Numbered from the stretch's first letter, positions 1,574 through 6,177 are shown. The stretch is DNA of 64,000 nt from a virus (IMGVR_UViG_3300011398_000004:9055-73054), one strand, 5' to 3'. Program-made: numbers and translations. The notes: a model not told the origin generated them from the sequence alone.

Positions 1574-1602
1574 AATGTAGCATAGCCACTAACGGATTGC
1601 AA
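1574..1602 (-). promoter_or_regulatory. sigma-A-like promoter TTGCAA-N17-TACATT (family B element)
   Basis: Minus-strand read TTGCAATCCGTTAGTGGCTATGCTACATT, upstream of a ~180-nt structured leader for gene 1144..1389. Closely resembles the element at 6149..6177. Confidence 0.4.
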
Positions 1603-1605
1603 GGT

Positions 1606-1998
1606 CTATTTAGCTACTTGCGTTCTTAATTTCTGCATTCGACGCTTCGCAGCCATCGCCCTCTTGAGATTCTTCATAACTTTCTTCTTACCGGCAGGGG
1701 TCTGAGTCCAATGCTTCTTTACATATTTCCGTTTCCCGTTCTGCTGGACGAGATCACCCTGATAGCCCTTGGCGAGGACTTTTATCTTCCTCGTGATCTT
1801 TCGTTTCTGTTTGTTAGTGAGAGATTTCTTCGGAGACTGATGCTCCTCTCCGACATACGGATATGCTGGAATCTTCCCATTCGAATGAATGTTTACGACT
1901 GAGAAATTTTCGAGCATGTCATCGAGGACTTCCACGTAGTGCCTGAATCTTTCAGCAAGACTTGCAATTTCGTATCTGAGGTTCGTTTTTTGTTCCAT
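1606..1998 (-). CDS. hypothetical protein with Lys/Arg-rich C-terminal tail (nucleic-acid-binding-like)
   Basis: ORF track; C-terminal KRKITRKIKVLAKG...KKKVMKNLKRAMAAKRRMQKLR. Confidence 0.45.
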   Translation of the reverse strand: MEQKTNLRYEIASLAERFRHYVEVLDDMLENFSVVNIHSNGKIPAYPYVGEEHQSPKKSLTNKQKRKITRKIKVLAKGYQGDLVQQNGKRKYVKKHWTQTPAGKKKVMKNLKRAMAAKRRMQKLRTQVAK

Positions 1999-2039
1999 AT
2001 AGTCCTTATACTGGTTGTTTACCTATTGCACCGTAACAC

Positions 2040-2068
2040 AGTTTATATACGATTGCAATAATTATTAT
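2040..2068 (-). promoter_or_regulatory. conserved early promoter element TTGCAATCGTATATAAACTGTGTTACGGT (family A)
   Basis: -35 TTGCAA, 17-nt spacer, -10 TACGGT on minus strand, 40 nt upstream of ATG at 1998. Near-identical copy at 3659..3687. Confidence 0.45.
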
Positions 2069-2579
2069 TTCCTTCTAATTCTCCGATTATTGTTTTGTTC
2101 TTCATACGTCGCCCATTTGACGTTTCCTGGTTCATAATCTTTATTGTTATCTATTCTCTCTATAGTCAATTCTGAAGACGGTTTCAGTCCTACATCTTCT
2201 AAGAAATTAGAAAATTTTCTTTCCATCTATCACAAACTTTAATCCCTCGACCACCATAGTTAGGATAATCTTTGATATTAGGATTATAACATCGTTGAAT
2301 CATATTATTCCATGCTCGATGTTCAGGTGTATTAGACATCCCATGGAATTTAAATAATCCTAAATTTTCTTTTCTATGATCTAAAGAATTTCCATTAATG
2401 AAAATCCTTTTAAATCCTATTGGAGTTATCCCTAATAGAAATGTGCTAAGCGGCACAGAAGAGGAATGAATAGTATTCCATTTAGTAATATGCCATTTAA
2501 AGAGTATGACTCTTTCATAATCTTCATCATCTATGATGAAAAGGGTTTTGCTTTTATCACTAGATGGGATAAATTTCAT
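2065..2579 (-). pseudogene. HNH homing endonuclease (YGGRGIxVC...RIDNxxxYEPGNxxW family) disrupted by a -1 frameshift
   Basis: N-terminal part is ORF 2199..2579, ending ...[19 protein letters not shown]. The C-terminal half (FSNFLEDVGLKPSSELTIERIDNNKDYEPGNVKWATYEEQNNNRRIRRK*) continues in the -1 frame to TAA at 2065-2067. The junction is the run AAAATTTT at 2211-2218. A -1 slip at A_AAT_TTT restores a protein exactly collinear with paralogs 6183..6776, 11153..11497 and 19039..19809. Confidence 0.55.
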
Positions 2580-3334
2580 GCAACTGAAAGTCTTGAATTT
2601 ACGAGTTTATTCCTTCGTAACTCTTTCGAATTCAATTGCTTTTTCATCCAATACATTCTGGTGAAGCCGTCCTCTTTCTTGACTTGCTCTCCTTCAATCA
2701 TTACATATTTGTATTTCGGGACGTTGTGATACGTCACGAAATACCAAATTCCCTTGATGAGTTCATAATTATGGAATTCATCAATCTTCTTGATGTCGGG
2801 GTTCTCTGGACGTCGATATCGTTTCGTTCTTTCCTCGATATAACAGAGGATACCGGTTCGAGGATGAACATACAGTCCTTGGAGAGGAGTCAATGGATCA
2901 CCGTGCCAGTGAAAACGATATCCACGACAGATAACACCGTCACGACGAATGACGGGATAGAGTTCTACTTCCGATTTTACGTGACCCCAGATGTGAATAC
3001 CGCTCAGGGAGCGTTGATCGAGGGATTCACATAGTTCGGAATAGACGTCATTCCACGGACGGCCCACTTGCTTCCGGAGGCACTTACGGAGTGGTCCTAG
3101 CAAATCTGAGAATTCTTTGCAATTCCATCCGTATTGCCGGTGCCGGGAGATGGGAAGAACTTTTGGTAATTCAAAGCGATCGATATCGAATCCGTCCTCG
3201 TCGAATTCGAGGGATGCTCGATGGATACGAAGGGACGTTTTGAGAGATGGATTTGAATGACCGCGCCGTGGGCTCTCAGTCGTTACTTTATCAAGATCTT
3301 TTCTCATGTTTTGTTCACCGAAATTACAAGACAA
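2576..3334 (-). CDS. hypothetical protein (252 aa), translationally coupled to downstream HNH
   Basis: ORF track; 4-nt overlap with 2199..2579. Confidence 0.5.
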   Translation of the reverse strand: MSCNFGEQNMRKDLDKVTTESPRRGHSNPSLKTSLRIHRASLEFDEDGFDIDRFELPKVLPISRHRQYGWNCKEFSDLLGPLRKCLRKQVGRPWNDVYSELCESLDQRSLSGIHIWGHVKSEVELYPVIRRDGVICRGYRFHWHGDPLTPLQGLYVHPRTGILCYIEERTKRYRRPENPDIKKIDEFHNYELIKGIWYFVTYHNVPKYKYVMIEGEQVKKEDGFTRMYWMKKQLNSKELRRNKLVNSRLSVA

Positions 3335-3451
3335 AGGCCAGCCAATCCATCGTCACAATACATTGCACTCATCTTGGATGCCTCCGTTGATGAGCTTTTC
3401 TAGATCCGGCGCTTCCTAGGCGCTTAAGGACACAAATGGATCAGCAAGAAT

Positions 3452-3652
3452 TTATTGATTTTTAGAATCTTTCTCTTCCATCAAAGAAATATGTATTTCT
3501 CGAAGATGATGAAGCCAGCGTTCAATCTGGATAATCAAATGTTCCATGTATTCGAGGGAAGGATTCATACCTACTGAACCCATTCTGCAAGTCATGATGC
3601 GATCAACTGCGTCTTCCTTCGTTTTATTCATTACATCTCCTTTATGCGCCAT
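3452..3652 (-). CDS. hypothetical small protein
   Basis: ORF track; TAAGGAGATG Shine-Dalgarno upstream of ATG 3652. Confidence 0.4.
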   Translation of the reverse strand: MAHKGDVMNKTKEDAVDRIMTCRMGSVGMNPSLEYMEHLIIQIERWLHHLREIHISLMEEKDSKNQ

Positions 3653-4809: not shown

Positions 4810-4915
4810 GATTAATTTCCGTCACTACCGACGTAACGTGCTACACGGAGTTTCATCAAGTGAAGAGCGTATTTCTTCTTGGAAAGACGTCTCCGCATTT
4901 TCTTGAGTTTCCACA

Positions 4916-5341
4916 TTATGGCCTCTTCTCGTAGATGTGATAGACGAGGACTTGATCGATATCCTCATCATAAAGATATTCATGCTTGCGATTGTAATTG
5001 CCGATATATGGTCCCCACTTGTGCCAACGCCAGCCACCTTCCTTTGACTGCTTCGCTCGAATGACGGGAGTGATCGTCACGATGAACTGCCGGACAGGAT
5101 CCTGTAGTGTCGGATATAATTCGAGAATTTGTTCTACATTATCACAAACTCCGTAGGAAGATTCATTGTCAAGATCAAAGTAACCTTCATATTCATCACT
5201 AGGCCAATACGAAGAACCGAAATGACCTATCTGATAGAATCCTGTCTGCAATTCTTTTGCATCAGTTTCATTCTTATTGACTATTGCGATAACAGCCAAT
5301 ATTGAATCATATCGGTTAACGAGTGGCTCTTTGATTAACAT
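4916..5341 (-). CDS. hypothetical protein
   Basis: ORF track frame 4916..5404. Start placed at the internal Met (MLIKEPL), which makes a TGATG stop/start overlap with the upstream gene. Confidence 0.4.
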   Translation of the reverse strand: MLIKEPLVNRYDSILAVIAIVNKNETDAKELQTGFYQIGHFGSSYWPSDEYEGYFDLDNESSYGVCDNVEQILELYPTLQDPVRQFIVTITPVIRAKQSKEGGWRWHKWGPYIGNYNRKHEYLYDEDIDQVLVYHIYEKRP

Positions 5342-5823
5342 CAGGAACCCATTGAGAAATGAATGGTCATAGCCATGACGTCGATATCCATGCCCTCGAA
5401 CCACACGTGATTGACATGCGGGTAGCCGTTGGCCTCGGATGATTCAACGAGAACCATGATGTCGAATGCGGAATACTCCTCGCGAACATCATGAAGCGGC
5501 CACGGTGTGTCTTCATCATATTCCGGGTGAAACTTCCCCTCGATGCCAGTGACCATGTAGGTGCCGGGCATGAGACCGAGCGGCTCATACATTTTCTTGA
5601 GCCTGTCGAAATCCTCAATTGAATAGCTCGGTGAACCATACTCCAATTTCGAAGTGTTGGTGTTGGGATCGTGAGTTACATTGCTTGAAGAGGTTTGCGG
5701 GTGCTCCTCTTTGGGAGACAATTCTTGAACACCGGCGACTTCACACAAATACTGGTAAAGTTTTTCCGGTGTATCCATATCCATGAACTCGTCGATGCGG
5801 CCGATAATATCGATGCTGATCAT
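5341..5823 (-). CDS. hypothetical protein (160 aa)
   Basis: ORF track; AGGAGATAGTCAATG ribosome-binding site. Confidence 0.45.
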   Translation of the reverse strand: MISIDIIGRIDEFMDMDTPEKLYQYLCEVAGVQELSPKEEHPQTSSSNVTHDPNTNTSKLEYGSPSYSIEDFDRLKKMYEPLGLMPGTYMVTGIEGKFHPEYDEDTPWPLHDVREEYSAFDIMVLVESSEANGYPHVNHVWFEGMDIDVMAMTIHFSMGS

Positions 5824-5835
5824 TGACTATCTCCT

Positions 5836-5994
5836 TTATACGGGAAGGCGCTGCGTTGCTTCTCCTCCTTTACGCTCGACTTCCTCCTTGCACTTGAGTG
5901 CATCGACTTTGTAAGCGAACTTTCGAGGGAAGTAACCGATGGGGAAATCGAATTTATCCCCTATTTGTGTGATTGTAACTAGCCACTTAGTCAT
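5836..5994 (-). CDS. small hypothetical protein (52 aa)
   Basis: Hand-translated MTKWLVTITQIGDKFDFPIGYFPRKFAYKVDALKCKEEVERKGGEATQRLPV; GGAGAT Shine-Dalgarno; ATGA overlap with upstream gene. Confidence 0.3.
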   Translation of the reverse strand: MTKWLVTITQIGDKFDFPIGYFPRKFAYKVDALKCKEEVERKGGEATQRLPV

Positions 5995-6143
5995 TGTTTC
6001 TTAATCTCCACGTTCTTAGGTGCTTTATTCCAACATTCATCTGAACAGAAAGATGCTGTCTTCATCGGTGGAACCTTTGTTTCGAATTCCTTATGACAAA
6101 CGTGACAGAAATCTTTGTATAGGACGATTAGGTTTTGCGCCAT
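5991..6143 (-). CDS. small zinc-ribbon protein (50 aa)
   Basis: Hand-translated MAQNLIVLYKDFCHVCHKEFETKVPPMKTASFCSDECWNKAPKNVEIKKQ; CxxC...CxxxC. Confidence 0.3.
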   Translation of the reverse strand: MAQNLIVLYKDFCHVCHKEFETKVPPMKTASFCSDECWNKAPKNVEIKKQ

Positions 6144-6148
6144 ATAAT

Positions 6149-6177
6149 AGCGTAGCATAGCGGCTTACGGATTACAA
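6149..6177 (-). promoter_or_regulatory. promoter TTGTAA-N17-TACGCT (family B element)
   Basis: Minus-strand read TTGTAATCCGTAAGCCGCTATGCTACGCT. Confidence 0.4.

Follow-up and report, generated by a model that had tools for sequence, protein, structure and literature searches.

A family of 29-nucleotide elements resembling housekeeping-sigma promoters precedes non-structural genes in an uncultured tailed phage and its relatives

The window analysed here is a stretch of 64,000 nucleotides of viral DNA (IMGVR_UViG_3300011398_000004:9055-73054) which comprises most of the genome of an uncultured tailed phage, and within it a conserved element of 29 nucleotides (the 29-mer) recurs upstream of non-structural genes. 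The 29-mer family very probably represents promoters of the housekeeping-sigma type (sigma-70/sigma-A) for host RNA polymerase. In this tailed phage (~64-73 kb) and its relatives, such promoters would head non-structural transcription units that contain small open reading frames (ORFs) of unknown function, HNH endonucleases, the DNA ligase and a GC-rich island. We propose two sources for the extra similarity among the copies: spacer features that are relevant to the polymerase (TRTG, an AT-tract and a G-rich end), and common descent or gene conversion of the copies within each genome. A second recognition factor would not be needed for the copies to be so alike, and none of our findings calls for one; the idea of such a factor is weakly supported.

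Recurrence of the element in the window and in related phages

An earlier, sequence-only reading of the window quoted five 29-mers, and all of them are present on the minus strand with the letters as quoted. Four lie exactly where they had been placed, at 1574-1602, 3659-3687, 6149-6177 and 56236-56264, while the fifth had been assigned to 2040-2068, 10 nucleotides away from its true position at 2030-2058. A search of the window with the pattern TTGYAATC-N9-CTRTGNTAC, allowing up to two mismatches, returned seven matches, against a mean of 0.13 in shuffled sequences (0 of 100 shuffles reached seven): 1577-1602, 2033-2058, 3662-3687, 6152-6177 and 56239-56264 on the minus strand, and 11117 and 13347 on the plus strand. 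All seven are situated in non-coding DNA, which accounts for ~11% of the window by the gene list made for this analysis, and all seven are oriented toward the next gene; the random or in-gene placement that had been named as evidence against a promoter role was not seen. Bare TTGYAATC octamers also occur within genes, for example at 7302, 8404, 44396 and 59258, and none of these four has the TRTGnTAnnnT half at the correct distance. An independent repeat search of positions 1-7200 returned the promoter copies as its two top direct-repeat families, and the similarity within subfamily A (described below) reaches 53 nucleotides at 75% identity. The two plus-strand matches, which had been linked to the family through their -35 hexamer, are indeed members: both have TTGCAATC, a 17-nucleotide spacer, a (T/C)GTGn motif and a TAnnnT hexamer.

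Homology searches of metagenomes with the terminase and the primase-helicase revealed many relatives of the phage, and six loci were taken from these for analysis. Five of them (L104-L108) were identified by their primase-helicase, at 49-61% identity, and the sixth (L102) by its terminase, at 77%; L103 is the window's own contig (ENA, 64,284 bp), of which a 73-kb version also exists. A position-weight scan built from the window copies detected the family in every one of the six relatives, and the family is conserved in phages whose primase-helicases are only 44-61% identical. We then counted matches to the anchored pattern TTG[CT]A[ATG]-N12-14-[TC][AG]TGnTAnnnT in the window contig and the six relatives, 133 kb in all, using the database's own gene calls. 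There are 42 matches where 0.22 are expected. Wholly intergenic positions account for 38 of the 42, intergenic DNA being 22% of the total; three of the remaining matches overlap the end of a called gene and one is inside a doubtful ORF of 136 residues. In 41 of the 42 the match points the same way as the called gene that follows it. With the window phage left aside, the consensus reads aAAtTAGnnC TTGCAA TCnGTTTaAAACTGTGG TATAcT GTAyTTG, and the relatives' exact 26-mer is found in three copies in each of two more phage contigs, of 56 and 57 kb (Joint Genome Institute metagenomes, IMG/VR). As a control, 31 unrelated prophage-like loci from bacterial genomes gave one match in ~0.5 Mb, a weak control because those loci are high in GC.

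Fit to the sigma-70/sigma-A promoter plan

From 5' to 3', the conserved block comprises A-rich DNA between about -47 and -40, then a C at position -36 and the -35 hexamer TTG(C/T)AA. The spacer of 17 nucleotides, which includes a TC dinucleotide, closes with TRTGn; after it come the -10 hexamer TAnnnT, 5-8 nucleotides rich in A/T, and a pyrimidine-purine step. The earlier reading of these parts as a -35, a 17-nucleotide spacer and a -10 holds, as the family fits the sigma-70 plan position by position; on that plan the A-rich tract, C at -36, TTG(C/T)AA, spacer with TRTGn and TAnnnT would together direct a start 6-8 nucleotides downstream. The seven strict copies in the window all have TTG(C/T)AA, 17 nucleotides and TA(C/T)nnT, and the variant copy at 19858-19887 has a spacer of 18 nucleotides. 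The extended -10 motif, with its TG at -15/-14, reads CGTG in the copy at 13347 and either TGTG or TATG in the other six, and the relatives are alike in this respect. In this phage the -10 hexamer itself is almost always TAC(G/A)NT, whereas most relatives have TATAMT. Pyrimidine-purine steps are present at +6 to +8 after the -10, and ATG codons are found at a fixed 5-8 nucleotides after it.

A survey of mapped transcription starts in 49 species (10.1101/2025.01.23.634641) provides a detailed description of sigma-70 promoters with which the family can be compared. In that work the spacer has four zones (a mostly-T AT-tract, a slight GC enrichment, a second AT-tract and a G-rich zone with TG), the upstream element has a cytosine at its 3' end, starts are centred 7 nucleotides past the -10 in YRY/YRR triplets, and TRTGn, common in Firmicutes, is contacted by the housekeeping sigma. 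Spacer sequence alone gave a range of promoter strength of more than 600-fold (10.1101/2025.01.23.634641). TRTGn as a "-16 region" common in Firmicutes goes back to Voskuil and Chambliss (2002), as far as their finding is related in a citing paper (PMC2613000). The 3' third of the family spacer is this TRTGn motif, and the spacer has the layout T / CnG / TTTAAAA / CTGTGG. The sequence-only reading had taken the conserved spacer as a sign that the promoters are read by something besides a sigma factor of the usual kind, or that the RNAs share a 5' leader. We find instead that it corresponds to TRTGn plus the general four-zone layout of sigma-70 spacers, and since that layout is matched and spacer sequence alone can shift strength more than 600-fold, the conservation of the spacer does not of itself imply a second factor.

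The same parts are retained between orthologous promoters. We compared three pairs (window 6149 and L106 9194; window 19933 and L158 3504; window 19887 and its counterpart in L158), and each pair retains the -35 and -10, the TRTG and the region of the start but differs in the centre of the spacer. Within a genome, paralogous copies resemble one another more than orthologous copies do, and the similarity extends into genome-specific flanks: up to 53 nucleotides in the window, 40 nucleotides on the upstream side in L107, and GTACACAGT on the downstream side in L105. Because the orthologs drop the middle of the spacer, the similarity within each genome looks like shared descent or gene conversion.

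A metagenome scan also returned a 29-mer exactly of the relatives' type, TTGCAATCCGTTTAAAACTGTGGTATGCT, upstream of secG on a bacterial chromosome fragment of high GC. This locus is present on five contigs (L143-L145, L149 and L151; GC 56-63%), for example at L145 5559-5587 on the minus strand, and its neighbours are an ORF that resembles nicotinate phosphoribosyltransferase when read from its translation, a toxin-antitoxin pair and a T-box leader. Two neighbouring promoters in the same bacterium read TTGCA(A/T)-N17-TATAAT with TGTGn. Judged by its letters, this copy is compatible with an ordinary housekeeping promoter over the full 29-mer, spacer included, and it may indicate the lineage from which this group of phages draws its hosts. 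We do not lean on it, because by a rough estimate ~0.5 chance matches are expected in such a collection.

Several observations weigh against assigning the family to host polymerase alone. TTGCAA agrees with the TTGACA consensus at only four of six positions, and the window's TACGCT is rich in G+C and agrees with TATAAT at only three of six. Most small early ORFs match no family, which leaves room for an unrecognised factor. Over all sites in the window and L102-L108, position -13 covaries with the -10: G at -13 occurs with TAT in a ratio of 14:1, and C or T with TAT or TAC in a ratio of 13:16 (Fisher p = 0.003, uncorrected for relatedness). This covariation and the TAC "dialect" could alternatively stem from a co-evolving phage factor. 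The spacer core of the relatives, GTTTWAAAC, is kept across genomes, forms the near-palindrome CAGTTT-N-AAACTG and is almost confined to these promoters; its conservation could reflect polymerase preference or an operator. Finally, the secG match could be due to chance.

Predicted leaderless genes

In four of the window copies an ATG opens the downstream ORF 5-8 nucleotides past the -10, with no ribosome-binding site. These are ATG 6143, 5 nucleotides after the -10 of the 6149-6177 copy, which begins a zinc-ribbon-like gene of 50 residues (5991-6143, minus strand; MAQNLIVLYKDFCHVCHKEF...); ATG 3652, 6 nucleotides after the -10 of the 3659-3687 copy, which begins a small ORF and has an in-frame alternative at ATG 3631 with an AAAGGAG ribosome-binding site; ATG 11153, 7 nucleotides after the -10 of the 11117-11145 copy, which begins an HNH-like gene (11153-11497); and ATG 56227, 8 nucleotides after the -10 of the 56236-56264 copy, which begins the ATP-dependent DNA ligase gene (55373-56227). 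A similar arrangement joins the HNH gene 6183-6776 to the looser promoter at 6782-6810, the ATG being 5 nucleotides past the -10. Other genes of the same operons have strong AGGAG-type ribosome-binding sites. At least four window genes would be transcribed into mRNA without a leader, because the purine of the predicted start is the A of the ATG.

The gene 5991-6143 has a homolog in L106, where the ATG is 6 nucleotides past a TACGCT -10 in a promoter of the same type, again without a ribosome-binding site. This shared spacing is the best of the indirect support for the predicted position of the transcription start.

The individual sites

The minus-strand copies fall into two subfamilies. Subfamily A comprises 2030-2058 (TTGCAA-TCGTATATAAACTGTGT-TACGGT), 3659-3687 (TTGCAA-TCGTATAAAAGCTGTGT-TACGCT) and 56236-56264 (TTGTAA-TCGTTAACAAACTGTGC-TACACT), and subfamily B comprises 1574-1602 (TTGCAA-TCCGTTAGTGGCTATGC-TACATT) and 6149-6177 (TTGTAA-TCCGTAAGCCGCTATGC-TACGCT). 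The predicted start of the 1574-1602 copy is at ~1567, the G of GTACTTG, and the next called gene, 1144-1389, is 184 nucleotides downstream. The 2030-2058 copy begins 6 nucleotides past the stop of a frameshifted HNH gene (2065-2579), and the gene that follows it, 1606-1998, has AAGGA as its ribosome-binding site. In the same manner, the 6149-6177 copy begins 6 nucleotides past the stop of the HNH gene 6183-6776 and precedes the putatively leaderless gene 5991-6143. The frameshifted gene is made up of ORFs 2199-2579 and 2065-2226, which together constitute a paralog of the endonuclease 6183-6776.

On the plus strand, 11117-11145 has a consensus -10 (TTGCAA-TCTTTATTAAAATGTGG-TATAAT), and 13347-13375 (TTGCAA-TCTTGCGGCGAGCGTGC-TACGCT) is followed by a 70-nucleotide leader before gene 13446-13862 of the GC-rich island. 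The HNH genes starting at 6776 and 11153 have putative leaderless promoters of their own of the TAT type, most other family copies here being of the TAC type.

The variant at 19858-19887 (minus strand) has TTGCAATC, an 18-nucleotide spacer and a TACAGT -10, and is without a TG motif. It precedes gene 19039-19809, which encodes a protein with HNH and RHH_3 domains, and its -35 and -10 blocks are conserved in L158. A perfect palindrome, GTATACAG-TG-CTGTATAC (19849-19866), overlaps the -10 and the start of this variant promoter. It may be an autoregulatory operator of the gene it precedes, because the product of that gene carries a ribbon-helix-helix (RHH_3) domain.

Three looser relatives of the family complete the set. 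The site at 6862-6890 (plus strand, TTGCAT-TGCAGCAGTTGATGTGG-TAGAAT) lacks the family spacer and is within the divergent region upstream of the primase-helicase operon, which runs from 7095 onwards. The site at 6782-6810 (minus strand) reads TTGCTT, 17 nucleotides ending in GTGT, and TAATAT. The site at 19933-19961 (plus strand, TTTACA-ATGGACTTTATCTGTGT-TATCAT) heads the plus-strand terminase and structural block, and its TCTGTGTTATCAT block and GGAGTAAAG leader are conserved in L158.

Two further family copies are present on the contig L103, 1.3-2.0 kb before the start of the window, at 862-890 and 237-265. One of them is TTGTAATCCGTTAACGGTTGTGCTACGCT, whose spacer holds the perfect palindrome CCGTTAACGG, and the other is a weaker copy, TTGCAATCAGCTAAAGCCTGTAGTAAGCT.

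Alternative explanations

The promoter copies may, on top of their role in transcription, act as short homology linkers for the shuffling of cassettes between phages, which we consider unlikely. A linker role has been proposed for PeSLs, the motifs of T4-like phages that combine an early promoter with a stem-loop (PMC4122927, PMC2839356). The regions of genes that we presume to be early from their type are hyperplastic here: gene content in the relatives is largely different and rearranged relative to the window, and the few window early genes that have homologs there are shifted in position or strand, again behind a promoter copy. The unit formed by the 6149 promoter and its first gene, 5991-6143, recurs in L106 with other genes downstream, and the greater similarity of copies within a genome than between orthologs is what gene conversion would produce. 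The composite PeSL anatomy is, however, absent, as the flanks of the 42 matches fold no better than shuffled sequences (mean folding z = -0.36 both for the 70 nucleotides upstream and for the 70 downstream) and have no common hairpin. Homology of 29-50 nucleotides at 70-90% identity is also short for efficient recombination. Breakpoints would have to be mapped between close genomes, and the nearest relative, L158, is ~73-77% identical in DNA, and this over the structural genes only; no closer pair was found.

A phage regulator, a sigma-appropriating protein or an alternative sigma might instead read the TC and the spacer and thereby switch the whole promoter set together. This is the main rival to our explanation, though we regard it as improbable. 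Its target would be the near-palindrome CAGTTT-N-AAACTG in the relatives and a CCGTTAACGG-like sequence in subfamily B. The relatives' spacer core fits such a target in being nearly exclusive to these promoters and in being kept across 44-61% protein identity. In the same genomes the promoters upstream of the primase-helicase operon lack the family spacer, hence there are two classes of promoter. The genome-wide TAC dialect and its covariation with -13 point in the same direction, as do small winged-helix (BrxR-like) genes in the early regions of L104 and L108. Against this, the dyad is weak in the copies of the window itself (a copy beyond its edge, on the same contig, does hold CCGTTAACGG), and the centre of the spacer is not kept in orthologous copies. 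The spacer layout is what polymerase alone prefers, and the same 29-mer stands in front of bacterial secG. Searches of the ~58 non-structural ORFs of the window with Pfam and PHROGs detected no sigma factor, RNA polymerase or helix-turn-helix regulator, and the only DNA-binding domain found among them is the RHH_3 of the HNH protein encoded at 19039-19809. A novel small factor is conceivable because most small ORFs match nothing. We would give little credence to the fuller version of this idea, in which an unrecognised small phage protein co-evolves with the TC-plus-spacer and the TAC dialect and provides a private switch over host-type, often leaderless units, the repeats perhaps serving as cassette-shuffling linkers as well.

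It is very improbable that the 29-mers, instead of being promoters, serve HNH homing endonucleases as targets or points of insertion. The window does contain seven HNH genes, and the paralogous 6183-6776 and 2065-2579 each end 6 nucleotides before a copy. However, three of the five quoted copies (1574, 3659 and 56236) have no HNH gene directly upstream, although the ligase operon behind 56236 has one further downstream, and many copies in the relatives have no Pfam-called HNH gene in the fetched loci. The DNA between the HNH stops and the motifs is dissimilar, and it is a property of promoters to share the orientation of the downstream gene strictly and to keep a fixed distance from its ATG. 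The two cases are more simply explained if an endonuclease gene was inserted directly before a promoter that was already there.

It is scarcely credible that what the copies share is an RNA feature, whether a 5' leader, a site of processing or a small hairpin: subfamily B has a weak 5-bp hairpin, GTGGC-TAT-GCTAC, which was flagged by a terminator scan, but no other copies have this hairpin, the flanks fold no better than shuffled sequences, RNAalifold found no pairs in the seven copies, Rfam matched only two tRNAs in the window, and the element would be absent from its own transcript because it is located upstream of its predicted start.

Genome context and other features of the window

A plus-strand block at ~20-54.5 kb contains the terminase, portal, capsid and tail genes. 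Non-structural genes are found at 1-20 kb, on either strand, and at 54.6-64 kb, on the minus strand only; among their products are a VapE-type primase-helicase, a UvrD-like helicase, an ATP-dependent DNA ligase, a metallophosphatase, seven HNH endonucleases, two tRNAs and many small ORFs without a known family. The two tRNAs, tRNA-Leu(TAA) at 60106-60190 and tRNA-Met(CAT) at 60619-60692 (minus strand), are on either side of an HNH endonuclease gene (60191-60607). The minus-strand gene 57598-60078 encodes a protein of 826 residues with major-vault-protein shoulder, Vault_3 and Band_7/SPFH domains, and the gene which runs off the window start (1-846) encodes a second Band_7 protein of 450 residues; vault and Band_7 proteins are unusual phage cargo.

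A megablast search of INPHARED with positions 1-8000 of the window returned no nucleotide match, and the terminase is at most 38% identical to that of any INPHARED record. Searches of IMG/VR with the ligase and with ORF 2576-3334 gave no close relatives. Scanning IMG/VR with the window's own motif returned 101 stretches with a single match in all but one; none of the 101 encodes a relative, and the sole double match is a collagen-like coding repeat. A terminase-profile scan of bacterial genomes for a host returned only distant, high-GC, prophage-like matches without the motif, and the pointers to the host conflict: a Pfam match to gp34 of cyanophage Pam3 on one side, and actinophage-like terminase matches on the other. 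A literature search for a phage TTGCAA early-promoter family returned nothing relevant.

The window also contains several repeats. An iteron-like cluster of TGTTTACA / TGTAAAC at 10340-10660 (plus strand) is located in the non-coding stretch 10281-11152, just past the VapE primase-helicase gene. It includes five of the window's nine exact copies of TGTTTACA, where 2.0 are expected for the entire window, and is a candidate replication origin. A tandem array at 14257-14439, with 3.7 copies of a 49-nucleotide unit built on ATATGCTATAGCATAT palindromes, is within an island at ~12-15.6 kb which has a GC content of 0.49-0.55 and is largely non-coding. The sequence-only reading had likened the core of subfamily B, GCTATGCTAC, to this array (there 14255-14432). 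The resemblance is at chance level, since array units match only with two mismatches and such matches number 60 across the window where 40 are expected, the array being one of dozens of places; a link of the promoter family to the array was therefore rejected. A perfect 15-nucleotide inverted repeat of a flavour similar to the array, TAACACGGCAATAGC / GCTATTGCCGTGTTA, is found at 56759-56798 within the intergenic region 56698-56888. ORF 14636-15433 of the GC-rich island contains 5.1 copies of a 15-nucleotide tandem repeat, GCCGAAGTGGCACCC, at 14843-14919, and 1.9 copies of a related unit near its end, at 15379-15407.

Discussion

The analysis provides a predicted transcription map for the non-structural half of a phage lineage that has no cultured relative and no INPHARED match. 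The map holds about eleven promoter sites with their predicted starts, and at least four genes that would be leaderless. The cross-phage consensus TTGCAA-TCnGTTTaAAACTGTGG-TATAcT can be used for the annotation of relatives. TRTGn, strong ribosome-binding sites and putative leaderless starts, taken together, hint weakly at a host polymerase of the Terrabacteria type (Firmicutes or Actinobacteria). The promoter family itself opens no new question, as repeated, highly similar host-type promoters are familiar in lytic phages, and this phage has the look of a lytic one.

The closest general counterpart is the sigma-70/sigma-A extended -10 promoter. It shares with the 29-mer a TTGNNN -35, a 17-nucleotide spacer, TRTGn before TAnnnT, an A-rich tract that ends in C, a four-zone spacer and a pyrimidine-purine start ~7 nucleotides past the -10. 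The 29-mer differs in having TTGCAA in place of TTGACA and, in this phage, TAC(G/A)NT in place of TATAAT, and its copies are far more alike than independent promoters require. The leaderless arrangement recalls the lambda cI mRNA, which is transcribed from PRM without a leader: here, too, the ATG is at or within 1-2 nucleotides of the predicted start and no ribosome-binding site is present. In this phage the arrangement would apply to at least four genes, as judged from spacing alone.

Two other repeated phage elements bear a partial resemblance. PeSLs are likewise repeated, conserved sigma-70-like promoters beside small ORFs of unknown function in hyperplastic regions; the family described here has no conserved stem-loop partner and belongs to an unrelated phage lineage. 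Repeated sites that bear operators are found in cluster A mycobacteriophages, as stoperators, and at the early promoters of phiC31, as conserved inverted repeats. Like these, the 29-mer is a short, promoter-associated repeat in many copies, and its spacer in the relatives is partly dyad-symmetric. It differs in that its conserved core is almost never found outside promoters and its spacer centre is not kept in orthologs. No cognate DNA-binding protein was identified among the ~58 non-structural ORFs searched, the RHH_3 domain already described being the sole DNA-binding domain found there.

A further parallel is offered by coliphage T5, whose highly efficient early promoters were reportedly described by Gentz and Bujard in 1985, and by similar sets of early promoters in other lytic phages. 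Promoters of this type are present in several copies per genome, are used by host polymerase and show homology beyond the hexamers, in an upstream A/T block, the spacer and the start region; we know of no phage recognition factor that they need. The consensus is different in T5, the lineage and host may be unrelated, and several copies here are fused directly to a start codon. What the two families would have in common is a set of repeated host-polymerase promoters whose homology extends past the two hexamers.

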